Sequence record: OZ335964.1
Direction: 5' to 3' (one strand)
DNA from: a phage
Length of the DNA: 64,000 bases
Shown here: piece after piece, positions 1 through 53,552 of the stretch
How positions within the stretch are numbered: position 1 is the first letter of the stretch
Layout of the letters: the number at the start of each line of letters is the position of its first letter
The notes under the pieces: model-generated
Database searches by the model: none
What the model saw: the letters and a program-made list of their open reading frames with translations, nothing else
Told to the model about the DNA's origin: nothing
Program-made: the position numbers and the translations under genes

Positions 1-239
1 CACTCCGCAATCACACATTCCATAATATTAAATGCTAACACATCTTCATCAATGTTGTAAACACTTGCTGCCTTCACTTTAACTAATGTGTCTCTGCGAT
101 CTGGCAGCATGATCACATAATCCAGTGTCGCCGGATCATATGTCATAAAGGGATCAATGTAAATCCCTTTATTCAATGCCAGATATTCGCGAAGACCTTC
201 TATAACCCTGTGTCTAAGGTAGGTCATCGATAGAATCAT
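1..239 (-). CDS. hypothetical protein, N-terminal fragment (gene continues beyond window start)
   Basis: ATG at 239 overlapping upstream stop in ATGA fashion; open frame runs to position 1 (MILSMTYLRHRVIEG...). Confidence 0.35.
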   Translation of the reverse strand, partial: MILSMTYLRHRVIEGLREYLALNKGIYIDPFMTYDPATLDYVIMLPDRRDTLVKVKAASVYNIDEDVLAFNIMECVIAE

Positions 240-808
240 TTTAGTTTATGTTCCTCTAAAAATTCTTCAATTTCACCTTGCAGGTCTTCCGCTTGTTGTT
301 CCAGAATATCGCGAAATTCACCTACAGTCAAGCGATAATCACACTTCACCAGTCGATGTGGGAGAATATACCCTTTATACATCGTCTCTGACGCTTCCAG
401 GAATACCCCACTATGCATGACAGAGATCCAACCTGTTAGCGTCAATGGAGTATTCGGAAAATAATACTTGCTGGATTGTTTCCACTGGACGAAAGCACCA
501 TATACAATCGGATTATATTCACCAACCACACTCTTAATAATGGCTTCTACTTTGTCTTTTACAAATACGCCAATGTCCATAGTTACCATCAAATCCTGTG
601 GATGAATCACTTTAAGGTAACGACGATAACCGTCATCATACCACATCTTAACCACTGGCTGACCCCACATTTTAGCAATACGCGCTTTCAGATAGCCATA
701 GATCGGATTCTTGCAATGTGATTGTTTTAGTGTGTATGTGTGCACCAATTCAATAAAATGTTCCATTACCAGCGAATCAGAATCAGCCGCGACCATAGTC
801 GTATTCAT
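236..808 (-). CDS. hypothetical protein
   Basis: ORF track 236..832; likely start ATG at 808 preceded by GAGGAA RBS. Confidence 0.5.
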   Translation of the reverse strand: MNTTMVAADSDSLVMEHFIELVHTYTLKQSHCKNPIYGYLKARIAKMWGQPVVKMWYDDGYRRYLKVIHPQDLMVTMDIGVFVKDKVEAIIKSVVGEYNPIVYGAFVQWKQSSKYYFPNTPLTLTGWISVMHSGVFLEASETMYKGYILPHRLVKCDYRLTVGEFRDILEQQAEDLQGEIEEFLEEHKLK

Positions 809-10018: not shown

Positions 10019-11881
10019 TTACATGTGCTTAACGCGGTTTACCATCTCGGAGTGTTTCCCGTGGTTAAATGGACGCAGATCAACAGATCCAAGATATCCA
10101 CTAACGCGCCGGATAACATTCATCTTTTCCAGATTGTCATTGCCGCAATCAGGACAAACAAAACCAGACTCGGTCGCTCTCATTTCCTTAGTAGATCCGC
10201 ATACATGACATACATCAGAAGGAGTATTAACACCGAAGTAATGCAATTTATCCATTGCATAGTCTACTACAGTTTCAAGACCTTTCAGGTTGTTTTTCAT
10301 GTCTGGGAACTCAACATAAGAGATCATGCCACCGGACGCCAGCCAGTGATAATCTTTCTCAAAGTCGATTTTCTCAAACGGTGTGACTTTCCGGTCTACG
10401 TCAAGATGGAATGAGTTGGTGTACCAGTCTTTATCGGTAGCACCCTTAACAATACCAAATTGCTCTCGATCCAGTCGATTAAATCGATAGCAAAGGCTCT
10501 CGGCTGGCGTACCGTAAAGACTAAACCCAAGTCCGGTTTCGTCCTTCCATTTTTCAGTATAATGACGCAAGATCTTAAGAATATGTTTACCGTATCGCTG
10601 CGCATCTTCCGAATCAAACGGATGAACACCAAACAGGACGCTCAATACCTCATGTAAACCAATATATCCAAGAGAGATACTAGCGCGACCATCTTTCAAC
10701 ACTTCCAAAATTTCATCGTTTTGATGAATACGGAAAAATGCACCTTCTGTATACAGCACAGGAGCAACATTGGCTTTAGCCCCTTTTAAAGCGTCTACGC
10801 GACTCATCAGCGCATCAAAGCAAATAGGCATACGATTAGCTAGCTCTTGTTCGAATAGCTCAATTCTGCGCATTACAGACGCTTTACCAGCACGACGCGC
10901 GGCAATAAGAGCAATACGCGGAAGATTCAGAGTCACAACACCTAAGTTATTACGTCCGTCTAATACTTCTTCGCCTTTCTCATTATGCCACACACCCAGG
11001 AAGCTACGACAACCCATCGGGCTAACCGGAACACTAGATCCAGTGATACTACGGTTATTCTTCGCAGAGATATAATCAGGGTAAAGACGCTTACTAGAAC
11101 ATTCCAATGCAAGTTGCTTAATGTCGTAGTTCGGATCTTCCGGTTTAAGGTTTAATCCTTCTTCTAAGAACATCACCAGCTTAGGAAACACCGGAGTGAT
11201 ACCATCTTTACCTAAACCTTTAGTTCGAACGTTCAGGATCGCTTTCTGAATCAGTTTTTCTTCCCAGCTAGTACCCATACCAAAGGTTAAAGTCACAAAA
11301 GGCGTTTGACCGTTGGTAGAGAACAAAGTGTTGATCTCATATTCCAACGCCTGATATCCGTCTAACGTTTCTTTTTCTGTCTTCTCTTGTGCATAGAGAG
11401 TATCAGCTTTGATTCCGTAGGTTTCGGCATCAGCAAGGTGTTTATGATATGTTTTCTCAACATACGGTGCTAACACCTGATCGATGTTTGCAATTGTGGT
11501 CCCGCCATATTGATGACTTGCCACCTGTGCGATAATTTGAGCGGTTACAGCACAAGCAACGCCGATTGATTTCGGACTTTCGATTTGTGCACTACCCAAT
11601 TTAAAACCATTCTCTAACATGTCTTTGAGATTAACAAGACAGCAGTTAGTAAACGGCATAGCGGGTGCATAATCCATATCATGATAATGAATATCACCGT
11701 CTACATGCGCTTTATAGATGTGCTCAGGTAACACGGTTTTAGCAATCTGTTTAGACACAGCACCAGCAATCAGATCTCGACGTGTCGGGAATGTTCGCGC
11801 GTCTTTGTTCGCGTTCTCTTTGCTTACTTCGTTTTCTTTACCCGTTGCGATCTCTGTAATGTCTTTGATTAGTTTTTCCAT
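10019..11881 (-). CDS. nrdD: anaerobic ribonucleoside-triphosphate reductase NrdD (glycyl radical enzyme)
   Basis: 620 aa; C-terminal RVSGYLG glycyl radical motif and CPDCG zinc site. Confidence 0.9.
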   Translation of the reverse strand: MEKLIKDITEIATGKENEVSKENANKDARTFPTRRDLIAGAVSKQIAKTVLPEHIYKAHVDGDIHYHDMDYAPAMPFTNCCLVNLKDMLENGFKLGSAQIESPKSIGVACAVTAQIIAQVASHQYGGTTIANIDQVLAPYVEKTYHKHLADAETYGIKADTLYAQEKTEKETLDGYQALEYEINTLFSTNGQTPFVTLTFGMGTSWEEKLIQKAILNVRTKGLGKDGITPVFPKLVMFLEEGLNLKPEDPNYDIKQLALECSSKRLYPDYISAKNNRSITGSSVPVSPMGCRSFLGVWHNEKGEEVLDGRNNLGVVTLNLPRIALIAARRAGKASVMRRIELFEQELANRMPICFDALMSRVDALKGAKANVAPVLYTEGAFFRIHQNDEILEVLKDGRASISLGYIGLHEVLSVLFGVHPFDSEDAQRYGKHILKILRHYTEKWKDETGLGFSLYGTPAESLCYRFNRLDREQFGIVKGATDKDWYTNSFHLDVDRKVTPFEKIDFEKDYHWLASGGMISYVEFPDMKNNLKGLETVVDYAMDKLHYFGVNTPSDVCHVCGSTKEMRATESGFVCPDCGNDNLEKMNVIRRVSGYLGSVDLRPFNHGKHSEMVNRVKHM

Positions 11882-15414: not shown

Positions 15415-16227
15415 TCAATCTACGTTAGTTACATAAACTTCTTGTGTATCAGAAGACTTGCCTCCTGAACGATCTAGGCAATAGGTCTTATTCAACAGGA
15501 CGCAGTTTAGATCATTCCTCTTGATAAAGTCAAGAAGATGATCATTTACCTTTCCCTTATGATGCGTGACATTACTGATACCAAACTGAAAACCACGCAC
15601 CATAATAGATTCCACCCACTGATAGAATTTAATCTCTTCCTCGTCACTCCAGAACTTATTATATTCCGCAGAAGTGATAAGGTACGGCGGGTCCAAATAA
15701 ACGAAATCGCCTGGCAAGATCTCGATCTCGTCATATCGTCCAGAAGTAAAATTGATTCGACCGTCTTTGTTTTCTTCTTTAAAATTCAGGACACGCTCTA
15801 CCGCGTTTTCGTTAAAAGTCCGGCGACCAAAATTAGCATTAAATTCGCCCTTCCGGTTATGTCGGTTAATGTTGCTAAAACTATGCTGAATCAACACAAA
15901 CAGCGATAGCGGATCTGGATTCTCGTTATACTTCTTACGGAATGTCATGTAAGCGTCTTTATCTTCGCGAGACAAACCATTCTCGGCAATAATCCGCTTG
16001 ATCGTAGAAACCGGATCAGGACACTCGTCAATGGCCTTGTAAGCGTCAATTAAACGATGGTCGTAGTCATTAGCCAGCACATCACCTTCGACGTACAGAG
16101 ACACGCTCAAGCCACCACAAAAGGCATCGACAAAGCGGTTATAGTGCTTAGGGAAATACTTACTAACACCAGGCAATAACTTTTCCTTATTGCCCGTATA
16201 GGGAATTAAACCTAATGCTTTCTTCAT
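15415..16227 (-). CDS. dam: DNA adenine methyltransferase Dam (GATC-type N6-adenine MTase)
   Basis: FVDAFCGGLSVSL SAM motif, DFVYLDPPYLITSAEYNKFWSDEEE matches remembered T4 Dam. Confidence 0.9.
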   Translation of the reverse strand: MKKALGLIPYTGNKEKLLPGVSKYFPKHYNRFVDAFCGGLSVSLYVEGDVLANDYDHRLIDAYKAIDECPDPVSTIKRIIAENGLSREDKDAYMTFRKKYNENPDPLSLFVLIQHSFSNINRHNRKGEFNANFGRRTFNENAVERVLNFKEENKDGRINFTSGRYDEIEILPGDFVYLDPPYLITSAEYNKFWSDEEEIKFYQWVESIMVRGFQFGISNVTHHKGKVNDHLLDFIKRNDLNCVLLNKTYCLDRSGGKSSDTQEVYVTNVD

Positions 16228-23078: not shown

Positions 23079-25217
23079 TTAAGGATTTCGGCCAGGGTAA
23101 TGCTTAAATCGACCGTAACCAGTTTCAATGCTCATATCTCGTTGACGCACAATCGCCCAATAACCGTTGCAGGAATCTTGAAGATATAGATCCTTACCTT
23201 TTAGGAACTCATTAAAAATAGTGATCTGCCAATCATAATAGACCGCATCAGCAAGACTACCCATCCAACCGTGCGGATCTTCCATCAGTTCGACAAGTTC
23301 ATCAATTACCCAATATGGACAAGGGCTAAATTTACCCTTACTAAAATCGCTGAACATAGTAACGATCTTGACTTCCGGTCGAGGCTGATCGGGAATATCT
23401 GGACGTTTGTTAACTACGACTTGCACATATTTTGTGTAGCCTACAATTTCACCTTCATCTAAGTTAGTGTTATTGTTTTTGTCGGCAAATGCAACAAATT
23501 TGTAAACACCAGAATCATTTAATGTTGCATTAGCTTTACGATATACCGGAACACTGGAATCTGCAATAGGTAATTTAATACCACTTTTACTAAATTCATA
23601 GGTCGGCACATAGTTAGATGGCGGTTTAATCATGGTTGCTTCCAGCACCAACGGATCACCCTCAGTAATTTGCACCGGATGCGGACCGTCAAATTCCATA
23701 TTAGGAATTACTTCAACTTTATAGGTTGCACGTCCTGCAATATCATATCCGGTATGCGCACTATGAGGATCTCGGCTAGGACTATCGCGATATTCATGCG
23801 ACCAGATACCATTATGTTCTTTATCCGCCGCATCAGTGATCTTATATTCTTTCGTTTCAATCGGCAATTCTGTTACAAGAACATCGTTTTTCAAAATTGC
23901 TAACGAACGAGTTTGAGTCGGATCATTACTTGCTGGAGGTTCTGGATCAACAATTTTAATAACAATAGGTTCCCCAACCTCAATACCGCTATAATCATGC
24001 TCGACGTCATAGATATCTAACATACGGCGATCATAAAATAACGGGCGAGAAGTTGGAGTTCTCTGCGGATCATCATCACGCGCAGGAGCTACCAACAATT
24101 GCAGGGCTACACTATTATCATATTGCAATTTCTCAAGACTAATACGGTCATAACCAGGATCACCATATTTCTTGCTTTGTAATTGCGTACCACCTAACAT
24201 CCACGTAAAGTAGACATTATTTGTTAATAAACCATAATGTCGGTTCCATGAATTATCAACAGGGGAAACTGGCATATCAATACTAACAGAAGACCCAGAA
24301 GGATAACGAAATTCAATAGCAGAAAAATCTCGGCTAAAAAATTCGTTTTCCTTGACGTTAACGCGGAATCGATGGCGCTGACCTTCCAGATACGATTCAC
24401 TACTACCAGGACCATTTTCAACCTTATAGGAACGAATACAAGCGACATAATCACCTGCATCTGCTTCGGTAGCATGTTTCGTCACATATAAAGTTTTATT
24501 CTTTGATTCATAAACCAAAGTACCATCGCCACGTTCCAGACGATAACGAACTATGGTATGTTCAGCGTCATTTGGGGCATCGTCTTCTACAGTATAATAG
24601 GCAGGTGCATATTTTTGTACATTGAATACAGCTAAATTTTCTCGAATTGTTGCTGTAAACGGATATACAAATTTAACATCACCTGTTTCGTCGCTTAATT
24701 CCATTCGATAAAGACCGGAAAATTCAGGCCATGCGAATTTTGCAATTTTAAATTCACGATGGTCCAATCCCAAATCACCATCTACGGAATCAACTAGACC
24801 ATTATTATAATACAAGTCAACAGAGATATTAGCAGGAATATTACTACGAAAAACAATTTTCGCTTTAAGTTCATCACCAATATTAAATGATGTCGGAGGA
24901 TATACATGTTCAACATATGGATTATCAAATAACTTAAATGTAAAGTTTTCCGTGCCAATATCGATAGAATCACCACTAAATGATGTGTCGCCTAGCGCAT
25001 AACCTCGAACGTTTACAGACCATCCGGTAACATCGTCTTCTTTAACGGAATCCAATGTAAATGTCGGAGAGGCACTTGTTGCTATAATCTGGTCATTTTT
25101 CTTCCAGACATAACCTTTTTTCGGTTTTGTTGAATCAGGGCTTTCATCAACAATACAGCAGCTAAAATCGTGCGGCATCCAAATCATATTATTGACCGTG
25201 GTGTTTACTACTGCCAT
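23079..25217 (-). CDS. large protein with Ig-like domain signatures (possible virion decoration or adhesin)
   Basis: 712 aa; DxGxYxC-type Ig motifs (EADAGDYVACI, LNDSGVYKFVAF); strong AGGAGGATTC RBS; own terminator. Confidence 0.55.
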   Translation of the reverse strand: MAVVNTTVNNMIWMPHDFSCCIVDESPDSTKPKKGYVWKKNDQIIATSASPTFTLDSVKEDDVTGWSVNVRGYALGDTSFSGDSIDIGTENFTFKLFDNPYVEHVYPPTSFNIGDELKAKIVFRSNIPANISVDLYYNNGLVDSVDGDLGLDHREFKIAKFAWPEFSGLYRMELSDETGDVKFVYPFTATIRENLAVFNVQKYAPAYYTVEDDAPNDAEHTIVRYRLERGDGTLVYESKNKTLYVTKHATEADAGDYVACIRSYKVENGPGSSESYLEGQRHRFRVNVKENEFFSRDFSAIEFRYPSGSSVSIDMPVSPVDNSWNRHYGLLTNNVYFTWMLGGTQLQSKKYGDPGYDRISLEKLQYDNSVALQLLVAPARDDDPQRTPTSRPLFYDRRMLDIYDVEHDYSGIEVGEPIVIKIVDPEPPASNDPTQTRSLAILKNDVLVTELPIETKEYKITDAADKEHNGIWSHEYRDSPSRDPHSAHTGYDIAGRATYKVEVIPNMEFDGPHPVQITEGDPLVLEATMIKPPSNYVPTYEFSKSGIKLPIADSSVPVYRKANATLNDSGVYKFVAFADKNNNTNLDEGEIVGYTKYVQVVVNKRPDIPDQPRPEVKIVTMFSDFSKGKFSPCPYWVIDELVELMEDPHGWMGSLADAVYYDWQITIFNEFLKGKDLYLQDSCNGYWAIVRQRDMSIETGYGRFKHYPGRNP

Positions 25218-27085: not shown

Positions 27086-27276
27086 AGATGACTCCAATAT
27101 AATCGACATTTACATTTAGGGCAATGCGGTTCTTTAATATAATACCCGTCTGTCTTTGGAACACTAACAGGAGCGGTTTTTATATTGTATTCAGTGAAAC
27201 AACGAAAACAAGTTACGTTTTCTACAGACTGACGTTTCACCCAATCACCGGAATAGAGATCATTTTTATTTGTCAT
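27082..27276 (-). CDS. Cys-rich small protein (zinc-ribbon-like)
   Basis: ATG at 27276; CFRCF...HCPKCKC. Confidence 0.45.
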   Translation of the reverse strand: MTNKNDLYSGDWVKRQSVENVTCFRCFTEYNIKTAPVSVPKTDGYYIKEPHCPKCKCRLYWSHL

Positions 27277-27721
27277 ATTCAACCACCACAATGTTAATGT
27301 CTGGAGTAGCAATATTAATGATCTCTTCTACACATTCCCACTCAAGGCCACCGATACCGCAACCGATTTTAGGAATATAGAAAGGCTGTATAGCACCTTC
27401 AAAAACATCATTGATAGTCTCAAATCCTTTCAGGATAGCACCATATTCAGCATTTGGACCCGGTCGGAATTGGGTATAGAGATTCACCCCGCACCAGTTA
27501 TAACCATTAACTTGATGCGTCCAGACACTAAACCCACCCAGCTTTTCTACCTTACCGCGAGAAGTTTGCTTGTCAATTTCTAACGCTTGCGGGAACTCTT
27601 TCGCGATATCCGCAGCAATACCAGCGCCCATAGTATGAAAACAATTACAACCATGAATTAAATGACCGTTTCCTTGTTTAAACAGGGCGATGAGATCGCC
27701 CTTTACAGTATCAATAATCAT
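27266..27721 (-). CDS. macro-domain-like protein (putative ADP-ribose binding/processing)
   Basis: 151 aa; HGCNCFHTMGAGIAADI resembles the macro-domain N..N...G.G(V/I) loop. Confidence 0.55.
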   Translation of the reverse strand: MIIDTVKGDLIALFKQGNGHLIHGCNCFHTMGAGIAADIAKEFPQALEIDKQTSRGKVEKLGGFSVWTHQVNGYNWCGVNLYTQFRPGPNAEYGAILKGFETINDVFEGAIQPFYIPKIGCGIGGLEWECVEEIINIATPDINIVVVEYDK

Positions 27722-29203: not shown

Positions 29204-29542
29204 TTATTCTCCTTTCTTAAACAAATTGCGAAGCCAGTATACAAACGGGATTTCTTTAAACTTGAACTTGTCAATAGTTAATTCTTTAGTAGCAAGATGA
29301 ATACCATAAGCATCATGTGTCACGATATGCCATTTTCTATAGCCCAAATGTGAACAACCGTCTGAATCTAGGTTAATAAGAGTTTCTCGCTCACTAGGAT
29401 TATTTTTCCACAATTTTGTAACCGGGTCGCACATAATTCGACCTAGCGTACCATGAATAATCTCACAACGGTAAAGTTTTCCAGCAGTGAGATAGGCGCA
29501 CCCGTCATAGTCGGTATAAACAAACACTTCTTTAACACTCAT
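29204..29542 (-). CDS. small paralog (C.HL.G..W family), double-domain member
   Basis: ATG at 29542; DYDGCAYLTAGKLY and DSDGCSHLGYRKWHIV. Confidence 0.5.
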   Translation of the reverse strand: MSVKEVFVYTDYDGCAYLTAGKLYRCEIIHGTLGRIMCDPVTKLWKNNPSERETLINLDSDGCSHLGYRKWHIVTHDAYGIHLATKELTIDKFKFKEIPFVYWLRNLFKKGE

Positions 29543-29573
29543 TTTAATACTCCTTTGTTGTTTCGATGGGGGT

Positions 29574-29602
29574 ATATTACTACCCCCGATCATGTGTGTC
29601 AA
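29574..29602 (-). promoter_or_regulatory. sigma70-like early promoter with stem-loop (TTGACA-N17-TAATAT)
   Basis: minus strand; hairpin GGGGGTA..TACCCCC. Confidence 0.45.
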
Positions 29603-29848
29603 CTACTTTTTCAAGAATTTTTTAATTGCGTTCCAAAGACCTTTATTCTCAGGTTGTTTTGGTTCTTCGATCAGCGTCCATGTTCGACCGTCTAAGTGTG
29701 CACAATTTTTAAGGCAAATAAAAATCTGGTGTCCCTTATCATCACGGATATAACCACTATTCGCAAATCTTTCATGTGGTGTATATTCATACAGTGTATT
29801 TGGTGTAATATACTTGCGGTTACTATAAGGTGTCATCACATACATCAT
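29603..29848 (-). CDS. small paralog (C.HL.G..W family)
   Basis: ATG at 29848 (ATGA overlap), GGGAG RBS; CAHLDGRTWTLI. Confidence 0.5.
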   Translation of the reverse strand: MMYVMTPYSNRKYITPNTLYEYTPHERFANSGYIRDDKGHQIFICLKNCAHLDGRTWTLIEEPKQPENKGLWNAIKKFLKK

Positions 29849-30039
29849 GGTACTAACTCCCAACGATCACCGCGAAGATGAGAACATCCACCATCAAGAA
29901 GGATCGTAATACGAAACCCCGCATCATCTTCAATATACCCGATAGTCGGTGGATGTTCGTCGTCTCGTGCCGGGGTAAAATCATACATCTTTCCGGGCGT
30001 AATATCTTGTCCTTTATTGCTATTGGTATAAACTTGCAT
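29845..30039 (-). CDS. small paralog (C.HL.G..W family)
   Basis: 64 aa; CSHLRGDRWELV. Confidence 0.5.
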   Translation of the reverse strand: MQVYTNSNKGQDITPGKMYDFTPARDDEHPPTIGYIEDDAGFRITILLDGGCSHLRGDRWELVP

Positions 30040-30060: not shown

Positions 30061-30759
30061 CTAACCACGGGTATAGTGTTCCAGAACAACGGTCAGATGA
30101 ATATATTCTAATAAATCTTTCCAAAAGTCAACATCTGGTTCTTCCGGCATACCGTTTTTCTTTGCCTCTTCACGCGCGAGTTTAACACGCTCGTAGAGAT
30201 CTTTCAATTCTTCCCGCACATTATCAAAGGTTCTTTCTCCTAACTTACACGCTAAAATAGAAGAACGTCGCGCGAGTGGGAATTGTAGATCACCTGTCTG
30301 ATAGATTTCAAGTAGCTGATAACCAACACGCAGAGCATGAGAAAGATCTTTCCAGTTACTGAAATACTTTTCAGATTTTGCTACCTGCTTTTTGAGATAA
30401 CCAGACAAACCCCACATCCCAACATGATAGAATTTATCGCGATGTGTTCGGATGTATTCCCATTCTCTGGAGGATTCAATCAACATGTTACTAGGCGCGT
30501 GCACCATGTCAATAGCGCCAATATCACCTTTACATGCCAGATTGATAAACCGTTTTAGACTGAACATATTAACGTCAATATCGTCTTTGGTGTTCTTGAT
30601 ACCTTGACCGCTAGTGCTTTGGTCATAGTGTTCTTTCATCGTTCCTAAGATAATTTCTTTCGCAGTCGGAACAAAGATACCACGATAATCTTTATCGGAA
30701 TTTTCAGTATCAAGACCGTATAAGTGAGATCCGAAGACCATTTTAACCATTGTATGCAT
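30061..30759 (-). CDS. Pol-beta-superfamily nucleotidyltransferase (putative)
   Basis: 232 aa; FGSHLYGLDTENSDKDYRGIF = GS...G...SD.D nucleotidyltransferase motif near N-terminus. Confidence 0.6.
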   Translation of the reverse strand: MHTMVKMVFGSHLYGLDTENSDKDYRGIFVPTAKEIILGTMKEHYDQSTSGQGIKNTKDDIDVNMFSLKRFINLACKGDIGAIDMVHAPSNMLIESSREWEYIRTHRDKFYHVGMWGLSGYLKKQVAKSEKYFSNWKDLSHALRVGYQLLEIYQTGDLQFPLARRSSILACKLGERTFDNVREELKDLYERVKLAREEAKKNGMPEEPDVDFWKDLLEYIHLTVVLEHYTRG

Positions 30760-30801
30760 AATTAAACCCTCAGTTGATTAAGAGATTGCATCATATCATC
30801 A

Positions 30802-30835
30802 TAAAACGAAAAAGCCAACCCTTTTCGGATTGGCT
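30802..30835 (-). terminator. intrinsic terminator after GrcA-like gene
   Basis: AGCCAAUCC..GGGUUGGCU hairpin + U-run on minus strand. Confidence 0.65.
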
Positions 30836-30845
30836 TGATGAAAAA

Positions 30846-31262
30846 TTAGAGAGATTCGGTAAAGGTGCGCGAAATAACATCACGTTGTTGGTCTGGAGTC
30901 AGACTATTGAATCTTACGGCATATCCGCTAACGCGAATGGTTAGTTGCGGATACTTATCAGGATTAGCAACCGCATCAAGAAGAAGATCGCGACTCATCA
31001 CATTGATATTCGCGTGCTGACCTCCTTCGACAACCGGAGCACCAGTATCTACAATAACAGGACGGAAGCTAGTTGTGTGCAGTGCCAGCGAATCGACGTC
31101 TTCTGCGGTGATCACATGGTCTTCTGCGAAAGTTTTACTAACAATTACTTTAGCGCCGATCAGTGCTTTCGGTTCGGATACCAGAATCATAGGCGCGAAA
31201 TGTCCACCAATAATAGTACCTTTATGCTCACCTTTCATGATTTGAATTGCTTTAAATTCCAT
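30846..31262 (-). CDS. grcA: autonomous glycyl radical cofactor GrcA/YfiD-like protein
   Basis: 138 aa; C-terminus [33 protein letters not shown] matches remembered E. coli GrcA/PflB glycyl radical domain. Confidence 0.85.
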
Positions 31263-34979: not shown

Positions 34980-35174
34980 TTATTCAAACTCAAACGGTCT
35001 ATTCAACCTATTGTAAAAGTACATATAACAAGCAAAATTATGCTTTGGCTGTACCGTATCAGATAGACACGCTTTTACAGCCTCGCGGTCCGATGGGTCT
35101 ACACCCTCAGCTTTAAGTAATGCTAAAATCTGGTTATAGCGTACTCTTAGTTGTACTAATGGTTTATCCCCCAT
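34980..35174 (-). CDS. hypothetical protein
   Basis: 64 aa; AAGGGGG RBS. Confidence 0.45.
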   Translation of the reverse strand: MGDKPLVQLRVRYNQILALLKAEGVDPSDREAVKACLSDTVQPKHNFACYMYFYNRLNRPFEFE

Positions 35175-35183
35175 ATTACCCCC

Positions 35184-35411
35184 TTATAGTTGATCAGCAA
35201 TGTATGCGGTGCATTTGCGGAGTTTAGCCATAGCACCACCTTTCATGTCGCTTGCGCCTACAATGTTCATGATCTCTAAGCGATCAGCCGGATTCAGTCT
35301 AGTAGCCCAGATCTGGTTAGCCAGTTCCATTTTACCCATCTGCGGTTCCATCTCAAACATTTCACGCTCAAAGTCGATAATTTCTTTTGCTGCGTCTTTA
35401 AAGTTAATCAT
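35184..35411 (-). CDS. hypothetical protein
   Basis: 75 aa; GGGAGGACCAAA leader; promoter-stem-loop upstream. Confidence 0.5.
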   Translation of the reverse strand: MINFKDAAKEIIDFEREMFEMEPQMGKMELANQIWATRLNPADRLEIMNIVGASDMKGGAMAKLRKCTAYIADQL

Positions 35412-35440
35412 TTTGGTCCTCCCGTTTCGTTGATGGTTGT

Positions 35441-35469
35441 ATTGTAGGGGAGTTATCCTCCCCTGTCAA
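35441..35469 (-). promoter_or_regulatory. sigma70-like early promoter with stem-loop (TTGACA-N17-TACAAT)
   Basis: minus strand; hairpin AGGGGAG..CTCCCCT in spacer. Confidence 0.5.
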
Positions 35470-35477
35470 CACTTTTA

Positions 35478-35663
35478 TCAGAAATATGCAATATAGTTTG
35501 CCAGTCCTACAGAGTCATCATTCGGCATTGCTTTTACCGCCAGTTCAAACCCTGCTTCAACTTTCTGTTTAGCGGATTCTTCGTTATAACCCCAGATGAC
35601 CAGAATAGCTACTACGTTTTCTTTGCTTACTGCTTTCAGTGCTTTAGTGATGCGACGTGCCAT
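35478..35663 (-). CDS. hypothetical protein
   Basis: 61 aa; GGAGAATCAAATT leader; promoter-stem-loop upstream. Confidence 0.45.
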   Translation of the reverse strand: MARRITKALKAVSKENVVAILVIWGYNEESAKQKVEAGFELAVKAMPNDDSVGLANYIAYF

Positions 35664-35709
35664 AATTTGATTCTCCGTTTAAGAAAGTGTGTTTCGTTTC
35701 GATGGGTGT

Positions 35710-35738
35710 ATTATGCTATAGGCGTGATCTGGTGTCAA
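35710..35738 (-). promoter_or_regulatory. sigma70-like early promoter (TTGACA-N17-CATAAT)
   Basis: minus strand; leader CATCGAAACGAAACACAC; directly after terminator 35765..35793. Confidence 0.5.
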
Positions 35739-35764
35739 CAACTTTTTTAAAAAATTTTAGGCAA

Positions 35765-35793
35765 TAAAAAAGCCACTCCGAAGAGTGGCTTAT
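35765..35793 (-). terminator. intrinsic terminator
   Basis: AGCCACUC-UUCG-GAGUGGCU hairpin + U6 on minus strand. Confidence 0.65.
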
Positions 35794-35935
35794 AGGGAAG
35801 GTAGCGAATCTTCCTTGTCTCCAACCTGCTAGCGGCCTAGCAAGTGAATGCTTTAGCGTACCGGATCACCCCATACGCTGCAATAAATGCGGCTAGGTGA
35901 CGTCCAAATCATTCTAACCGCGCTGTCTTTAGTTC
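35794..35935 (-). ncRNA. candidate small non-coding RNA or structured 3' UTR (between a late-promoter motif and an intrinsic terminator)
   Basis: about 140 nt with no ORF; TATAAATA on minus strand at 35948..35941; three stem-loops (GCGUA..UACGC, GCUAG..CUAGC, GGAAG..CUUCC) then terminator; T4 carries small RNAs (rnaC/rnaD) in the equivalent neighbourhood. Confidence 0.3.
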
Positions 35936-35939
35936 ACTA

Positions 35940-36158
35940 TTATTTATATCGCTTTCTCTCGCGACGTTTTTGATCTTCTTCCTTGATAGAGTTAAATGCA
36001 TCAAAAAGACACATGACACTGATAATGAACATAACCGTATTTTCTACGATATCCCACGGCTTCGCATCAGTACAGATCCCCCAAACGGTAAGAAATGCAA
36101 ATAGTGCAGAAGAGATCACAAGCATGATACTTGCTAAGATATAAAAAGTCATTTTCAT
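35940..36158 (-). CDS. small hydrophobic membrane protein
   Basis: 72 aa, TM helices, basic C-terminus. Confidence 0.45.
   Translation of the reverse strand: MKMTFYILASIMLVISSALFAFLTVWGICTDAKPWDIVENTVMFIISVMCLFDAFNSIKEEDQKRRERKRYK
35941..35948 (-). promoter_or_regulatory. T4-type late promoter motif TATAAATA on minus strand
   Basis: plus-strand TATTTATA; precedes the ORF-free 140 nt stretch ending at a terminator. Confidence 0.4.
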
Positions 36159-36337
36159 GGTTTTACCTCAATTCTTCGATATTCATCACACATCCACGCA
36201 GTAAGCAAGAATCCCAGCACATAAGCAACAAAATACGTTAATGCTTCTTCTGGTTCTGTGCTGTGTATCATCATTAAACCAGCTAGAACGGTCTTAACAA
36301 TTACATTTAAAATAATTAGCCACGCAAATAATTTCAT
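36155..36337 (-). CDS. small hydrophobic membrane protein
   Basis: ATG at 36337 in ATGA overlap with upstream gene. Confidence 0.45.
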   Translation of the reverse strand: MKLFAWLIILNVIVKTVLAGLMMIHSTEPEEALTYFVAYVLGFLLTAWMCDEYRRIEVKP

Positions 36338-36558
36338 CGTTTGCCCCATTTCGGTCGAGTCTTTTCAAACTTATACATTCCGTAACAATCTCGAATCATC
36401 CACGTAACAAGAGCACCAGTCAACACAGACAATACACAGAAGAAGTAAAACGGTCCGGTTGCATTATCAACATGAGCAAGCCAGGTAAAGAAAACACATG
36501 CTAAGAATGTGAAGAACATCATAAAACACAAGAAAGCAAAATATTTTATGCTACTCAT
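36334..36558 (-). CDS. small hydrophobic membrane protein
   Basis: ORF track starts with TTG; ATG at 36558 with GGTGG RBS. Confidence 0.45.
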   Translation of the reverse strand: MSSIKYFAFLCFMMFFTFLACVFFTWLAHVDNATGPFYFFCVLSVLTGALVTWMIRDCYGMYKFEKTRPKWGKR

Positions 36559-36661
36559 AGCGCCACCATACAACAGATCATAAGAAACCCCAACGCAATA
36601 AGAATTGCATCAAATTTAGTGAACTCAGGTCCACCTATCAACATCATTCGTTCCTGTTCAT

Positions 36662-36859
36662 TCATAGATCACAGAGCCATCTTAAAGCACCACATAAAGC
36701 GAGCAGAATACTAGGTATAAAAGAGACCAAAACAAGTTCGCAAAAATCATCTAAGGTAACACCGGAATAGCTACCTACTGTAACAACACCGATCATCAGA
36801 CACAGAAAGAAAACAAATGCAATCAGAAACAAAGTATTGCTAAACAGTTTAGTGATCAT
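36662..36859 (-). CDS. small hydrophobic membrane protein
   Basis: ATG at 36859 with GGGGTG RBS; longer track ORF would overlap upstream gene. Confidence 0.4.
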   Translation of the reverse strand: MITKLFSNTLFLIAFVFFLCLMIGVVTVGSYSGVTLDDFCELVLVSFIPSILLALCGALRWLCDL

Positions 36860-37052
36860 TAGACACCCCACGACGATCAATTTCAAAAACTTTTTTATCA
36901 TCAACGAAGCATGTCACAACTGCCTCGTTGACTTCCGCAAATTGTTGTGTTACCCACTTAAGGTCAGATCGAAACAATGTTTTGTTAATAACAAATGTTT
37001 TACCGCTCTTATCCTTACCCATAAATTTTGCTTTAACCATATCCAATTCCAT
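36849..37052 (-). CDS. hypothetical protein
   Basis: 67 aa soluble; AAGGTGATAAT leader. Confidence 0.45.
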   Translation of the reverse strand: MELDMVKAKFMGKDKSGKTFVINKTLFRSDLKWVTQQFAEVNEAVVTCFVDDKKVFEIDRRGVSNDH

Positions 37053-37061
37053 ATTATCACC

Positions 37062-37220
37062 TTATTTGCTAATCGCTAAACCCAATCCGAAGAGAGCACC
37101 CGATGCTACAGTATACCCGAAAGTTTCAAATGCAGTAAAGATATCTAAGCCACCAGCTAACAGAGTTGCAGTAAACAGAGTACCAGCTACGAACATAAAA
37201 GTTTTACCGATAAATTTCAT
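37062..37220 (-). CDS. small hydrophobic membrane protein (not in ORF track)
   Basis: 52 aa MKFIGKTFMFVAGTLFTATLLAGG...; GGAGAATCAAAATG leader; promoter-stem-loop upstream. Confidence 0.4.
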   Translation of the reverse strand: MKFIGKTFMFVAGTLFTATLLAGGLDIFTAFETFGYTVASGALFGLGLAISK

Positions 37221-37251
37221 TTTGATTCTCCTTTCGTTTGTTTGTGGGGGT

Positions 37252-37280
37252 ATCTTACTACCCCCGTTTCATGTTGTCAA
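37252..37280 (-). promoter_or_regulatory. sigma70-like early promoter with stem-loop (TTGACA-N17-TAAGAT)
   Basis: minus strand; hairpin GGGGGTA..TACCCCC. Confidence 0.45.
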
Positions 37281-37286
37281 CTGTTT

Positions 37287-37661
37287 TTAAGAAAATTTTA
37301 CTTCGTCTACAATGTCTTTCATGACATTGATTTCCATTCCGGTCAGAACACGTTGGAACATGTGCTGCACATACGCTTTCAGATATTCATTTGATGGCTT
37401 GCTATCAAAAGTCTTTTTAGTATAGTAGTCATCACCGAAAGCTACTGTAATTACATTTTCGTCGTCGTTCCAAGCGATATAAGCAAATTTGCCGTTATCC
37501 CAGAAGCGAGCACTAATTGCTACTTTTGTTGAATCGAATCCTACTTCGCTGTGAGATTCAAGAACTACTTGCGTGCCAGTTTCTTTATGAATGTAGTAGC
37601 GGGATACTAAGTCAAAGTTACGAGTGTAGTGACATTCGAATTTATCTTTAAACATCATCAT
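37287..37661 (-). CDS. hypothetical protein
   Basis: ORF track 37287..37730 overlaps promoter; ATG run at 37661 after GGAGAATCAAAA leader. Confidence 0.5.
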   Translation of the reverse strand: MMMFKDKFECHYTRNFDLVSRYYIHKETGTQVVLESHSEVGFDSTKVAISARFWDNGKFAYIAWNDDENVITVAFGDDYYTKKTFDSKPSNEYLKAYVQHMFQRVLTGMEINVMKDIVDEVKFS

Positions 37662-37698
37662 TTTTGATTCTCCTAGTGTGTTTCGTTTCGATATGTGC

Positions 37699-37728
37699 AT
37701 TATGATATAGTCGTTTATGGTTGTCAAC
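37699..37728 (-). promoter_or_regulatory. sigma70-like early promoter (TTGACA-N18-CATAAT)
   Basis: minus strand; directly after terminator of the Acb1-like gene. Confidence 0.45.
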
Positions 37729-37734
37729 ACCTAA

Positions 37735-37763
37735 AAACAAAAAACCCCGAAAAATTTTCGGGG
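37735..37763 (-). terminator. intrinsic terminator after Acb1-like gene
   Basis: CCCCGAAAAUUUUCGGGG hairpin + U-run on minus strand. Confidence 0.6.
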
Positions 37764-37770
37764 TATAAAA

Positions 37771-38235
37771 TTACAGTTTGGTCGTCCACTCCAGGTCTAG
37801 ATCTTCGACATACTCATGAGATCGGACAATCTCTAAATCGAACTCTAGGTCAGTGCCAAATTTACGCGCACCAACATCATAAGAAAGCGTGATATGCGGT
37901 ACATATTCAGGATAATCCCACGTCGCGCCTAAAGCAGTTCCGATATCGTGTCTGAATTGCATGTAGTCGCTTTCAAATGCCAGCACAAGTGCATTAGTAC
38001 CGGATTGAGTTTCAAACACTTTCAGATGACACAGAGAGCCTAAGAACTTTTCCCCTTCTTCTGGGATAAACGGAACATAGACACGAGAATATAAGATAGT
38101 GCTATGAAGTTTATCACGAGGAACGGCATTAGGCAGATCGTAGAACTCCTGCAATTTTTCAATGCGGTCTAGTGTATCCTCAGTGAATTTAACCGCCGCA
38201 TATGTACCTTTAACGGATTCTCGAAACGGGGTCAT
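37771..38235 (-). CDS. 57B: 2H-phosphoesterase-fold protein, Acb1 (gene 57B)-like cyclic-oligonucleotide phosphodiesterase
   Basis: two H-x-T/S motifs (KLHSTIL, VPHITLS); position immediately before 57A and gp1 as T4 57B; ATG at 38235 after GGAGG. Confidence 0.65.
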   Translation of the reverse strand: MTPFRESVKGTYAAVKFTEDTLDRIEKLQEFYDLPNAVPRDKLHSTILYSRVYVPFIPEEGEKFLGSLCHLKVFETQSGTNALVLAFESDYMQFRHDIGTALGATWDYPEYVPHITLSYDVGARKFGTDLEFDLEIVRSHEYVEDLDLEWTTKL

Positions 38236-38237
38236 AA

Positions 38238-38489
38238 TCAAGCCTCCGTGATCAGTTCTACTTCCTCTTCTGCGTCTTCGCCTTTAGGGAGAAGTGATTT
38301 CACTTCTTCGACAATAGCATCAAGGGAAACAGTGCCGTTTTCGTCTGGCTGAATACCCAGAATGCGTACCAGTTCCATCAATACACGCTCACGATCTTTC
38401 AGTTGGCCTTCTAAGAATGCGGCCTTTTCTTGAGTGTCAAACAGACGGACTTTCAGGACATTAATCATTTGTTCATGCTGATTGGACAT
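38238..38489 (-). CDS. 57A: tail fibre assembly chaperone gp57A-like
   Basis: 83 aa acidic coiled-coil protein directly before gp1, as T4 57A. Confidence 0.55.
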   Translation of the reverse strand: MSNQHEQMINVLKVRLFDTQEKAAFLEGQLKDRERVLMELVRILGIQPDENGTVSLDAIVEEVKSLLPKGEDAEEEVELITEA

Positions 38490-38522
38490 ATTCACATCTC
38501 CTACTTGTTGATAACTTTTTTA

Positions 38523-39179
38523 TTAAATGTTCGCGAGAATCGCGCTTTCAAATTCTTCTAATGTACCATTATTTATGATAATTGTTTCACCGTCAATAGG
38601 CACAATTCCTTTTTCGGTGGAGTGAGTAGATACAATACCAGTATCACGCTGAATATGCAACACCTTAGCACCCATAGAACGCATGAGAGCAATTTCAATA
38701 GGCTGGCGCACATCAACCACTACAAAATACCCTTCTTCATTTTTGCGCTTCATAAACTCATTCACGAAGAGATTACACCAATAAAGCGGATTGATCAAGT
38801 TAACCATTATATCAGTACCGAGAGTGGTTAACATGAGACGAATAGACCAGACGTTATTATGTTTTTCGCCGATCTCATTAACGACCTTGTAAATCTCAGC
38901 CAGACGATCACAAGTAAAGGAACTACCGCCATACTTCGAATCTAGCATAAGCAGACACTGAATAAACCACTTATGCGCGGTGTAGGTATCAATACCTAGA
39001 TCGGCTTCTCTGTCACGCCCTAACCCGTCAAAGTCAAGATAAGTCAGACCTAAGTCTGGTTGACATTCGCACAATATTTCTTTGATCGGTGCTGCCAGTT
39101 GATAACTATGTCCATCAATGATTAACGCGGCAGTGTCTTTTCCTACTCGCTTTTTACCACAAAGTGCAATCAATTTCAT
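38523..39179 (-). CDS. 1: deoxynucleoside monophosphate kinase gp1
   Basis: 218 aa; P-loop GKKRVGKDT; synteny 57A-1-3-2-4. Confidence 0.85.
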   Translation of the reverse strand: MKLIALCGKKRVGKDTAALIIDGHSYQLAAPIKEILCECQPDLGLTYLDFDGLGRDREADLGIDTYTAHKWFIQCLLMLDSKYGGSSFTCDRLAEIYKVVNEIGEKHNNVWSIRLMLTTLGTDIMVNLINPLYWCNLFVNEFMKRKNEEGYFVVVDVRQPIEIALMRSMGAKVLHIQRDTGIVSTHSTEKGIVPIDGETIIINNGTLEEFESAILANI

Positions 39180-39194
39180 TATATAAGCCTCTTA

Positions 39195-39785
39195 TTACTT
39201 TCTAAAAGCAGGGTGCATAGCTTTAATACCTTCCACCCGCTGACGATCCGCCGCCTGAATTGCAGGGCGAGGAACGATCAGTTGACCATCACGTTCAATG
39301 CTCATTGTTTTAAAGGGAAGAATTGCAGTACACACCAGAGATTCATGCATATCATCGGTGTATGTTAACTCAAGTTCCCCCAATTGTGAACACCAACAAC
39401 CATAAAAGTTAAAAGTGCACACAATGTTACGGCGTTCGTTGTCCATCATGTGAACTTGAACGGCTTCCGGCATTGAATCCTTCCACGCAGTGGAGTTACC
39501 GTTATTGTAGTCTACTATAGAAAGCATCCATGTGTAAAGGTTTAGATAGCTTTCTAGATGTTCATCGACAATAAACCGAACGACCAACGGGTCAAACTCC
39601 ACATGACTAGACGGATAATCAGCGACCGCCAAACCATATTGACCAGCAACTTGCTTAGTCGGTGGAATGGTTATAGCCGGAAGTGTAACACCTTGACAGT
39701 TTAAAGTAAAGCCTTTTGTTAGCTGTCCATCTGGAATATTGATCTGCCAGTTGCTAGGGTTAGCATAGTTAAAGAGATTAGACAT
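39195..39785 (-). CDS. 3: tail completion / sheath stabiliser gp3
   Basis: 196 aa; position between gp1 and gp2 as in T4. Confidence 0.7.
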   Translation of the reverse strand: MSNLFNYANPSNWQINIPDGQLTKGFTLNCQGVTLPAITIPPTKQVAGQYGLAVADYPSSHVEFDPLVVRFIVDEHLESYLNLYTWMLSIVDYNNGNSTAWKDSMPEAVQVHMMDNERRNIVCTFNFYGCWCSQLGELELTYTDDMHESLVCTAILPFKTMSIERDGQLIVPRPAIQAADRQRVEGIKAMHPAFRK

Positions 39786-39974
39786 TACTGATTCCTCAAA
39801 TGAAAATATTTATTAACAATTGTCGCTTCGCGACGTGCCGTAGGCACTGACTACTTTTTAACCGAAACAAATTTTTATTATTCTAAAGATCTTTCTTCGT
39901 TTTGGTTATGTTTTAACCAATAACTATATTTTTATACAGTAATAAATAAAACGGGTACTATACGAGGACTTCTT

Positions 39975-40229
39975 ATGACAGAAGACATTTTGTTAAAACT
40001 CTATGATCGTTTGGATAACGAATTAGCAACATTGCGGGGTGAAGTTCTCTATTTGTCTAAATGCAATACAGATCTGCTTAAGCAGATTGCAGAAAGGGAT
40101 GATCAAATAAAATCCCTTTCAGGTGCATTACGTGATCGCGACAAGGCATTAGAGATTTTACAGCGTGTTACCAATAAGGAAGAATTAAAAGACTTCTTAC
40201 ATGGTTATGCTCATGCTATCGATCTATAA
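39975..40229 (+). CDS. hypothetical coiled-coil protein
   Basis: 84 aa plus-strand ORF with ACGAGGAC RBS, convergent with the Zn-ribbon nuclease gene; shared terminator hairpin. Confidence 0.45.
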   Translation: MTEDILLKLYDRLDNELATLRGEVLYLSKCNTDLLKQIAERDDQIKSLSGALRDRDKALEILQRVTNKEELKDFLHGYAHAIDL

Positions 40230-40258
40230 TAAAAAAGCCCGTCAATGACGGGCTTAAT
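40229..40258. terminator. bidirectional terminator hairpin between convergent genes
   Basis: AGCCCGUCA..ACGGGCU hairpin; strong U-run on minus side, weaker on plus side. Confidence 0.55.
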
Positions 40259-40259
40259 G

Positions 40260-41402
40260 TTAACTATTGATCATATCAATGACGTTTTGTAGCTCTGATA
40301 TGGATAGCGTTTCTGTATATCCATCGGGCATATCTTCTTTACTAACATAGAAACCTTTATACTTTTTCTTTATTGCACATTCCATAGAAAGAGCATCATC
40401 ACCGTTATCGTATTTTTTATAAAATGTCAACTCATGACGAAATATAGATTTTGAAGATTGGTTTTGTATTCTTTTTATTAATCTGTTGTTGGTTATACCA
40501 AATTTTATAGCAACCGCAACATCTTCTTTGTATAAAGTTTGTACATAAATGTATGCAGGTTTATTCCTCTTAAATCCATGATTGCTACACATAGGGCAAC
40601 CGCTATTTTTTGATACGTAGTCTCCTAAGTTTGGCGTAAATTCATGTCCGCTACTACAACGCATTACCAATTTTGTTTTTAGCATTCCTCTATACTCACC
40701 GCCAACAAAATCAACAAATGTATCACCTTTATCAATCGCCTTATCTGTTATTTCCTTTACTACTTGCTCAGTTGACTTCTTGTTTTTACCTGAACATAGT
40801 TTACATCTAGATCCATTAACTAAAAACGAGTGACCAGATGCAGTATATTCATGTCCATTAGGACATTTAACTAAGATATTTCTTTCATAAAAATCTTTAT
40901 AATCAGACACATAGCCAATAACTTCGTGGTCTTTTTGGGCATTCCTCATCTCTGTTAGCAACTCTTCGCTATTCCAGCGTTTACCCTTAACGCAGAGACA
41001 ACCATGACCTTGATAAAGATATATAAATTTCTTAGTAAAGTTTTTGTTACAGTCAGGGCAGTGCATTAGTAATTCTGTCATTTGACCTGTATACCCTTTA
41101 GGAATATCGATCAATGTGTATTTTCCGCATATTGTCTTTAATGCATCATCTATTCTTTCTTTGGTCCAGCGTAAGCGACCAGTGCATTCATGACATTTTA
41201 CACCCAGTCTAAGAGTATCTAAACTAAATATAGTTGACGTATGTCCTTTATCACATTTTAACTTAAATCTAGTATCCTTTGCGTTGGTGTATTCTCCAAC
41301 TAGACCATACCATTCATAACCACATGGGATATGTTCTTTTACCTTCTCTAGATATACACCGAACGGTCTAGGAACTGAATTAGGTTTTCTTTCTTTAGTC
41401 AT
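40260..41402 (-). CDS. multi-zinc-ribbon protein with C-terminal GIY-YIG-like (T5orf172-type) nuclease domain; probable free-standing homing-endonuclease-like gene
   Basis: 380 aa; four about 45 aa Cys modules (CDKGH..CHEC, CPDC, CPNGH..CKLC, CSSGH..CPMC) then KPAYIYVQ...KFGITNNRLIKR; inserted between gp3 and gp2. Confidence 0.5.
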   Translation of the reverse strand: MTKERKPNSVPRPFGVYLEKVKEHIPCGYEWYGLVGEYTNAKDTRFKLKCDKGHTSTIFSLDTLRLGVKCHECTGRLRWTKERIDDALKTICGKYTLIDIPKGYTGQMTELLMHCPDCNKNFTKKFIYLYQGHGCLCVKGKRWNSEELLTEMRNAQKDHEVIGYVSDYKDFYERNILVKCPNGHEYTASGHSFLVNGSRCKLCSGKNKKSTEQVVKEITDKAIDKGDTFVDFVGGEYRGMLKTKLVMRCSSGHEFTPNLGDYVSKNSGCPMCSNHGFKRNKPAYIYVQTLYKEDVAVAIKFGITNNRLIKRIQNQSSKSIFRHELTFYKKYDNGDDALSMECAIKKKYKGFYVSKEDMPDGYTETLSISELQNVIDMINS

Positions 41403-52393: not shown

Positions 52394-52713
52394 ATATTAA
52401 ATTGCATTACACAATGAATAAAGCTAAGTTCCCAATGCAAAAGCATTACTATGGTCTACGTGCACAAGATCCAAAACTCTATGGTACTCATTGGTTTTGT
52501 AAACATGATAACCAATGGCACACATACGAAGAAATGCACGAGATGATGAAACAGGGTATTGAATTTAGTTATTCTAATTATGACCATCGTATAACTTGCA
52601 TTCGAAAATTGAAACGATGGATTCGTAAGAATCCGCAATTTAAAAACTTTGTGTTCTTTATGTCTCATGTTTATTTGGGGCATAGCGTTACCGTAACAGC
52701 AAAGGTTAAATAA
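52381..52713 (+). CDS. hypothetical protein (moron gene 2)
   Basis: 110 aa; overlaps gene 1 stop; same ATGGCACG start context. Confidence 0.5.
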   Translation: MARVNIKLHYTMNKAKFPMQKHYYGLRAQDPKLYGTHWFCKHDNQWHTYEEMHEMMKQGIEFSYSNYDHRITCIRKLKRWIRKNPQFKNFVFFMSHVYLGHSVTVTAKVK

Positions 52714-53552
52714 TGGCACGACTTTCTAAACAAGAACAAAAATTACACGATCGAGCAATGGAGTTGATTAATTCAGATCGTCCATTGACATATGAAGAAA
52801 AAGAATTTTGCTATAATAACTATCATGGCGATGGGCTAGGTGGTTCCGGTGCATTCTTTACACCAGAAGGTCTTGCATGGGATTTTACCATCGATGCACA
52901 TTGCACAGGAAAAGTATTAGATCTTTGTGCTGGGATCGGTCGCTTATCTTTTTGTATGTTACATCGTTGTAAGCCAGAAAAGATCGTATGCGTCGAACTC
53001 AATCCAGAATTTGCGCGTATAGGTAAACGACTATTACCGGAAGCAGAATGGATCACCAGCGATGTATTCGAATTTGAGTCAAACGAAAAATTCGATGTGG
53101 TGATCAGCAATCCACCTTTCGGGAAAATCAATACAACCGACACAAAGGATGTATTTGAGTACACTGGCGGCGAATTTGAATTTAAGGTTATGACATTAGG
53201 CCAGAAGTTTGCCGATGTAGGTTATTTTATTGTTCCTACTGGTTCCGCTGGTTTTGCCTATTCTGGTAGACCTTATTATGACGGGACCATGAAGTCTAAT
53301 AAATATCTAAAATGGAGCAAACAAACTGGTTTGGTGACTTATGCCGGATGTGGGATCGATACATCAATCTATCGCGATGAATGGCATAGTACCAACGTTT
53401 TAACAGAAGTGGTTGAGGTTCGGTATTACGAGAAAGAAGCCGTAGAAGCGCCTAAATCACGTCCTAACGAACAAATAGAAGAAAGTAAGGAGATTACCTT
53501 ACCGAAACAGGAAAGCGAGTCTGGGACGCTCTCAGATTTGTTTGACATTTAA
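52713..53552 (+). CDS. gamma-class N6-adenine methyltransferase (putative DNA MTase)
   Basis: 279 aa; motif order FFTP, then VLDLCAGIGRL (SAM binding), then NPPFG (catalytic). Confidence 0.7.
   Translation: MARLSKQEQKLHDRAMELINSDRPLTYEEKEFCYNNYHGDGLGGSGAFFTPEGLAWDFTIDAHCTGKVLDLCAGIGRLSFCMLHRCKPEKIVCVELNPEFARIGKRLLPEAEWITSDVFEFESNEKFDVVISNPPFGKINTTDTKDVFEYTGGEFEFKVMTLGQKFADVGYFIVPTGSAGFAYSGRPYYDGTMKSNKYLKWSKQTGLVTYAGCGIDTSIYRDEWHSTNVLTEVVEVRYYEKEAVEAPKSRPNEQIEESKEITLPKQESESGTLSDLFDI

Follow-up and report, generated by a model that had tools for sequence, protein, structure and literature searches.

The window, that is, the whole 64,000-nucleotide stretch of phage DNA analyzed here (sequence record OZ335964.1), belongs to a Krischvirus; phages of this RB49/Phi1/JSE type are T4-like and infect E. 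coli and Shigella. The gene of interest, acb1 (gene 57B), is read on the minus strand from an ATG at 38235 to a stop codon at 37773–37771 (Table 1), and the exact coordinates proposed for this reading frame in a preliminary description of the sequence were recovered. A mechanical list of open reading frames (ORFs) makes the frame two codons longer, beginning with a TTG at 38241. We consider the ATG to be the better start, because a GGAGG lies 7 nt upstream of it and the same 465-nt coding sequence is annotated in five relatives (JSE, RB49, Phi1, ELT3, and Makalu_001). The ribosome-binding site is at the same place in the Ec_Makalu_001 annotation. The plus-strand ORFs overlapping acb1 are short (31–65 aa) and without support. 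An Rfam search of positions 35000–41000 on both strands (E≤0.1) gave no match and hence no RNA element over or beside the gene.

The order of genes on the minus strand is 4, 2, a 380-aa CapR/zinc-finger "endonuclease", 3, 1, 57A, and 57B/acb1. Two nucleotides separate the TGA stop codon of 57A (38240–38238) from the ATG of acb1, and acb1 is translationally coupled to 57A. The window, JSE, and T4 all have the block 3-1-57A-57B on a single strand; in T4 it is preceded on that strand by genes 4 and 2. The gene had been placed immediately before 57A and gene 1, which is correct in plus-strand coordinates. In the direction of transcription, however, the order is 3, 1, 57A, 57B, and 57B comes last, as in T4. 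Genes 2 and 3 are adjacent in T4, whereas in the window two extra ORFs lie between them. One is the 380-aa ORF (40260..41402, minus), which has CapR-homology and treble-clef zinc-finger domains and is called "endonuclease" in JSE. The second, of 84 aa and on the opposite strand (39975..40229, plus), has no family match; a terminator-like hairpin is found at 40255..40235.

Table 1. Coordinates of acb1, its functional segments and flanking signals, and of other genes discussed in the text.
Feature	Position	Strand	Details
acb1 (gene 57B) CDS	37771..38235	minus	154 aa + stop, 465 nt
Shine-Dalgarno GGAGG	38243..38247	minus	7 nt 5' of acb1 ATG, within 57A 3' end; read from sequence
First catalytic H-x-T motif (H44-S45-T46)	38098..38106	minus	aligns with T4 H44/T46, FBB1 H44/T46
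Second catalytic H-x-T motif (H114-I115-T116)	37888..37896	minus	aligns with T4 H113/T115, FBB1 H114/T116
C-terminal segment with E144 (adenine N6 contact) and lid W150	37774..37806	minus	T4 E141 corresponds to E144, W147 to W150
Intrinsic terminator hairpin, 9-bp G+C-rich stem then UUUUUUGUUUUU	37744..37764	minus	6 nt past acb1 stop; terminator scan
Gene 57A (tail-fiber chaperone)	38238..38495	minus	Pfam GP57 E=2.2e-6 (27.8 bits, cutoff 27); PHROG 1002 E=9e-26
Gene 1 (dNMP kinase)	38523..39179	minus	Pfam DNMK E=5.9e-68
Gene 3 (tail completion / sheath stabilizer), first of block	39195..39785	minus	Pfam Phage_T4_gp19 E=1.7e-7; PHROG 45 E=5e-44; gp3 in JSE
Dam, D12 class	15415..16227
Tk.4 macro-domain protein	27266..27721	minus	Pfam Macro E=2e-6; 44% identical to T4 Tk.4
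NrdC.11 nucleotidyltransferase	30061..30759		Pfam RlaP E=3e-14
Second methyltransferase	52713..53552		between genes 8 and 9

The terminator hairpin behind acb1 has a folding energy of −12.8 kcal/mol (z=−3.1), which was equaled by one of 200 shuffled sequences. A terminator is annotated here in the records of Makalu_001, TB34, and G37-3 as well. Between the hairpin and the next gene lies a sigma-70-like site, TTGACA-17-CATAAT, at 37727–37699. Further sigma-70-like sites upstream of acb1 (38596..38568 and 39206..39178) are consensus matches only. The T4 late-promoter motif TATAAATA occurs at four sites in the window, against 6.9 expected by chance, and none of them is near acb1. Because the promoter matches rest on consensus and no late motif is near, we make no claim on the timing of acb1 expression.

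The next gene downstream (37287..37661, minus) codes for a 124-aa protein of phrog_15253 with a sub-threshold similarity to Gp30.7 (E=0.004) and a promoter-like site of its own. It is followed by a 52-aa hydrophobic ORF (37062..37220, minus) and by dmd (36849..37052, minus; Pfam Dmd E=1e-15), which is the third gene downstream of acb1. Dmd is an antitoxin-like inhibitor of RnlA/LsoA. It is the best-established anti-defense neighbor of acb1 and had gone unnamed in the preliminary description. These three genes, which occupy the place of ipI in T4, may form a small anti-defense neighborhood. Beyond them, at 35940..36904 on the minus strand, five short ORFs (72, 64, 79, 36, and 80 aa) overlap head to tail. 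Their translations are strongly hydrophobic and resemble small membrane proteins; in JSE all are annotated as hypothetical.

Family assignment, active site, and predicted fold

The acb1 protein matches the Pfam family PF23474 (Acb1) with an E value of 1.5e-51 and a score of 174.4 bits, where the curated cutoff is 27 bits. Residues 9–152 cover positions 1–143 of the 144 positions of the model. A phmmer search against all PDB sequences returned FBB1 Acb1 (7T26/7T27) with E=1.8e-43 as the only match at E≤1. The assignment to the Acb1 family is, with these two values, far beyond chance. The preliminary description had called the gene product an Acb1 (57B)-like 2H phosphoesterase and had suggested alignment to T4 Acb1 as a check. 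This is borne out by the Pfam model, by the crystal structure, and by the fold prediction, and the alignment to T4 gp57B runs end to end with 47% identity, as does the tblastn match. Identity to FBB1 Acb1 is 52–54%. Matches were found by tblastn in 1,476 of 50,697 phage records, and PF23474 is carried by all 64 homologues found in a collection of 5.8 billion proteins. PADLOC gave no match to the acb1 protein; its library models host defense proteins, and the result is hence uninformative.

The two motifs pointed out earlier, HSTI and HITL, are present as H44-S45-T46-I47 (nt 38106–38095), preceded by KL, and H114-I115-T116-L117 (nt 37896–37885), preceded by VP. In the numbering of the 152-aa T4 protein, the catalytic HxT/HxT tetrad of Acb1 is H44/T46/H113/T115, the stacking aromatic residues are Y12, W74, F107, and W147, and E141 contacts N6 of adenine; the C-terminal residues of FBB1 Acb1 form a lid (Hobbs et al. 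2022, PMC9117128). These nine functional residues map in our alignment to Y12/H44/T46/F74/Y108/H114/T116/E144/W150 of the window protein. The catalytic histidines, whose alignment had been named as a point to verify, both fall on their T4 counterparts, as do both threonines. These four residues are invariant in 63 homologues, and Y12, E141, and E144 are conserved in at least 90% of the same set. The window protein has the residues of FBB1 Acb1 at all nine positions, including F74 and Y108. Compared with T4, the nine are kept or conservatively replaced (W74 by F, F107 by Y). The only notable difference from both T4 and FBB1 is the two residues inserted behind residue 125 in a loop on the surface (approximately residues 126–127).

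An AlphaFold2 model built from 63 sequences has a mean pLDDT of 90.1 and a pTM of 0.83. Its last four residues are of low confidence, as is expected of a flexible lid. In Foldseek, the model superposes on 7T26 with a TM score of 0.97 (target-normalized) and an rmsd of 0.9 Å over 138 columns; the TM score for 7T27 is 0.93. The next match outside the Acb1 family is a phosphodiesterase of the Burkholderia phage BCSR5 (TM 0.70, 17% identity). The window protein is predicted to adopt the compact 2H phosphoesterase fold that is seen in 7T26/7T27.

We weighed whether the gene could code instead for a 2H phosphoesterase of general type that acts on RNA (a 2'-5' RNA ligase or 2',3'-cyclic phosphodiesterase like LigT/ThpR), a partner of the phage RNA-repair enzymes, and find this highly improbable. 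Three observations would fit it: the phage encodes PseT and RnlA, LigT and other 2H enzymes turn up in the fold search, and the protein matches PHROG 755, which is described as "RNA ligase", and weakly also 2_5_RNA_ligase2 (PF13563, E=0.0011). The last match, however, scores 19.4 bits, which is below the 27-bit cutoff for membership, and spans only residues 70–126, whereas the Acb1 match is full-length. The superposition on LigT is similarly poor, with a TM score of approximately 0.5, an rmsd of 6–7 Å, and 10–12% identity, compared with the near-identity to Acb1 given above. The Acb1-specific base-stacking and adenine-contact residues are all retained, which argues against a role in RNA metabolism. 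So does the finding that the cleavage of cGAMP in infected lysate is due to T4 57B (Hobbs et al. 2022, PMC9117128). We rejected the function "RNA ligase" on the sub-threshold Pfam score and the poor fold match.

The reading frame is thus very probably the Krischvirus orthologue of T4 gene 57B, the anti-CBASS nuclease Acb1. As a finding this is already known: the Acb1 family has a Pfam entry and two crystal structures, and its mechanism was published in 2022. The exact 154-aa sequence occurs on 316 contigs in NCBI, UniRef, and metagenome collections, and UniRef lists the identical protein under the name "Anti-CBASS protein Acb1" (n=16, Krischvirus, Q7Y455_BPRB4 of RB49). Most of the 59 Krischvirus GenBank/RefSeq records nevertheless call acb1 "hypothetical protein" or "RNA ligase". 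The latter label derives from PHROG 755 and not from experiment, and it is misleading. The practical value of the present analysis lies in the annotation of Krischvirus acb1; it has little value as a discovery.

Allele variation and proposed function

The acb1 locus is present in all 59 Krischvirus records with 96–99% nucleotide identity, and the 4-kb stretch around it matches JSE at 98% identity. In 56 records the encoded protein has an identity of at least 99%. Six alleles (window, JSE, RB49, Phi1, ELT3, and Makalu_001) differ at 18 variable sites, all 18 of which are synonymous, so that the six proteins are identical. Of the possible single-base changes in acb1, 23% are synonymous; the probability of an all-synonymous outcome is approximately 3e-12 under the naive assumption of unconstrained, equally likely substitutions. 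These allele sequences show that acb1 is under strong purifying selection.

Two records depart from this pattern. In Cognac (172..635), the frame is broken by a 1-bp deletion in codon 65, and the gene is annotated as a 64-aa and an 82-aa ORF; in TB34 (125..640), two 1-bp insertions break the frame. These frameshifts are either sequencing errors or natural inactivations. A broken acb1 allows Bas43 to escape from Panoptes guard systems (PMC13577387), and the loss in Cognac and TB34, if real, would resemble that case. The frame-breaking indels, together with the natural loss in Bas43, could be read as signs that acb1 is decaying or has lost its function and persists only because it lies between conserved genes. 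We attach practically no probability to this reading. In the window, acb1 has an undamaged frame behind a strong ribosome-binding site, and none of its catalytic residues is lost; both the 56 near-identical proteins and the exclusively synonymous variation speak against decay. A pseudogene was rejected on the intact frame and the purifying selection.

The window differs from JSE in other places. As far as length and position alone can show, nrdD (10019..11881, minus) is one unbroken 620-aa ORF, and in JSE it is in two pieces around a homing endonuclease. A homing endonuclease found in JSE between nrdC.11 and vs.6 is also missing from the window (30759..30846). The window phage therefore lacks at least two of the mobile insertions of JSE. 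Conversely, the window has a 712-aa ORF (23079..25217, minus) that JSE lacks; the gap at the corresponding place in JSE measures approximately 330 bp. The ORF has no Pfam family and a weak C-terminal match to a Hoc-like/Ig PHROG (E=4e-6). It is full-length in only six of the 59 Krischvirus records, with 99.9% identity in Shigella phage JK32 and 73–78% in the five others. This ORF is a large, fast-evolving accessory gene.

The substrates, chemistry, and effect on CBASS of the window protein can be proposed by analogy with the T4 and FBB1 enzymes. Acb1 cuts 3' of adenosine, without metal, via a cyclic phosphate intermediate, and FBB1 Acb1, which cleaves 3'3'-cGAMP, was crystallized with the cleaved product (PMC9117128). 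[quoted passage not shown] Y12, F74, Y108, and W150 would stack on the bases, E144 would contact N6 of adenine, and the C-terminal lid would close over the ligand. In the strained ligand, the 2'-OH of adenosine would attack the 3'-5' phosphodiester, with H44 and H114 as putative general acid and base, and the phosphate would be held by T46 and T116. The bond 3' of adenosine would be cut with no metal, and a 2',3'-cyclic phosphate intermediate would be hydrolyzed to give a linear product. This product would be unable to activate CBASS effectors, and abortive infection would not follow.

A literature search on Acb1 with Krischvirus or RB49 returned no paper and no enzymatic or infection data for the orthologue. 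The activity of the window protein is proposed on homology, at 47–54% identity to the characterized enzymes, and its substrate range could differ in detail because of the two-residue loop insertion near residues 126–127. A stronger form of this idea is that Krischvirus has a genuine Acb1-family enzyme with an altered substrate range, which might prefer, or cut in addition, signals not cleaved by T4 Acb1 (e.g., cGG, cA4, or 2'3'-linked dinucleotides), so that other signaling defenses are countered. The 47% identity to T4, the F74/Y108 pair in place of W74/F107, and the loop insertion would be compatible with such a shift. Another point in its favor is that no recognizable T4-type Acb2 (Vs.4) is found in the window or in JSE, and Acb1 may carry the whole load. 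The same F74/Y108 pair, however, is present in FBB1 Acb1 with its 3'3'-cGAMP-cleaving activity, the adenine-specific contact E144 is conserved, and the backbone of the model hardly differs from that of 7T26. In addition, nine of nine further, diverse Acb1 homologues tested cleaved both 3'3'-cGAMP and cAAA (Hobbs et al. 2022, PMC9117128). We judge a shifted range to be very unlikely, and the preferred reading remains an Acb1 with the activities known from T4 and FBB1.

The proposed wider counter-defense repertoire

The preliminary description saw in acb1, a macro domain, a nucleotidyltransferase, and two methyltransferases a multi-layered counter-defense repertoire. The four additional genes are indeed present (Tk.4, NrdC.11, Dam, and a second methyltransferase). 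They form no island, however, but are spread over approximately 37 kb, and all four are conserved T4-type genes. A counter-defense role of Tk.4 and NrdC.11 is conjecture. In PADLOC, the macro domain of Tk.4 hits the model for that of the DarG antitoxin (E=5.7e-14), which suggests that Tk.4 could undo ADP-ribosylation such as that carried out by DarT-type toxins.

T4 has a second anti-CBASS protein, Vs.4, which we take to be the Acb2 sponge. In tblastn searches of the window and of the complete JSE genome, no homologue of T4 Vs.4 (88 aa) was found (best E=2.0), nor any of T4 IpI (best E=0.26). T4 57A likewise gave no match to the window 57A at E≤1, though Pfam and PHROG identify the latter; because this small, diverged protein was also missed, the negative results for Vs.4 and IpI are soft. 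Krischvirus may have no anti-CBASS gene other than acb1. At 29204..30039 on the minus strand, between regB and nrdC.11, the window has three tandem paralogous ORFs (111, 86, and 64 aa; phrog_6261 / phrog_15978, no Pfam family) that share the pattern ...GYI.DD.G..I.L....C.HL.G..W.L... and sit in the place of T4 vs.3-vs.5, which includes Acb2 (Vs.4).

One may speculate, though we think it unlikely, that Krischvirus relies on Acb1 alone and that the loop insertion has broadened or shifted its range. If this were true, Krischvirus would be a natural single-enzyme system and a predictable target of cA3-decoy guards (type II Panoptes, for example), and the alleles with frameshifts in Cognac and TB34 would be natural escapes. 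Bas46 and Bas47, presumably the Krischvirus isolates of the BASEL collection, are not mentioned in two papers on Panoptes. For RB49/JSE-like phages used in therapy cocktails or in defense screens, the Acb1 assignment means that they should degrade cGAMP and cA3 signals. They may evade many CBASS systems and yet be sensed by cA3-decoy guard systems.

Comparison with known systems

Two H-x-T/S motifs and a metal-independent chemistry through a cyclic phosphate are the hallmarks of the 2H superfamily. LigT/ThpR and other 2H enzymes (PDB IDs: 5LDI, 1VDX, 5H7E; PF13563) share this superfamily fold in Foldseek. The LigT/ThpR-type proteins are approximately 20–30 residues longer than the window protein, with 10–18% identity, TM scores of 0.5–0.6, and rmsd values of 4.5–7.5 Å. 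The phosphodiesterase of BCSR5 (PDB IDs: 9Q2Y/9Q2G, open and closed lid) is also a phage 2H phosphodiesterase with a lid (TM 0.70, E=6e-8). It differs in having 16–17% identity, an rmsd of 4.3 Å, and no sequence-level match to the window protein. A literature search on BCSR5 returned no functional paper.

The closest solved structure is that of FBB1 Acb1, as the apo form (7T26) and in complex with the 3'3'-cGAMP product (7T27). FBB1 is an Erwinia phage and thus has a host of a different genus, and the loop insertion of the window protein is absent from its Acb1.

T4 Acb1 (NP_049750.1) shares with the window protein the catalytic tetrad, the ligand-contact positions, and the length class (152 aa versus 154). 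It differs in W74 and F107, which are F74 and Y108 here, and in the two-residue insertion, which is present in the window protein only. The surroundings can be compared in the same way. Downstream of 57B, T4 has ipI and a tRNA cluster, whereas the window has the 124-aa protein, the 52-aa ORF, and dmd; a tRNA scan of the whole window found none. In T4, as in the window, 57B ends the 3-1-57A-57B block on the same strand, in close coupling to 57A; a stem-loop comes next and then an early promoter, a layout like that of the window.
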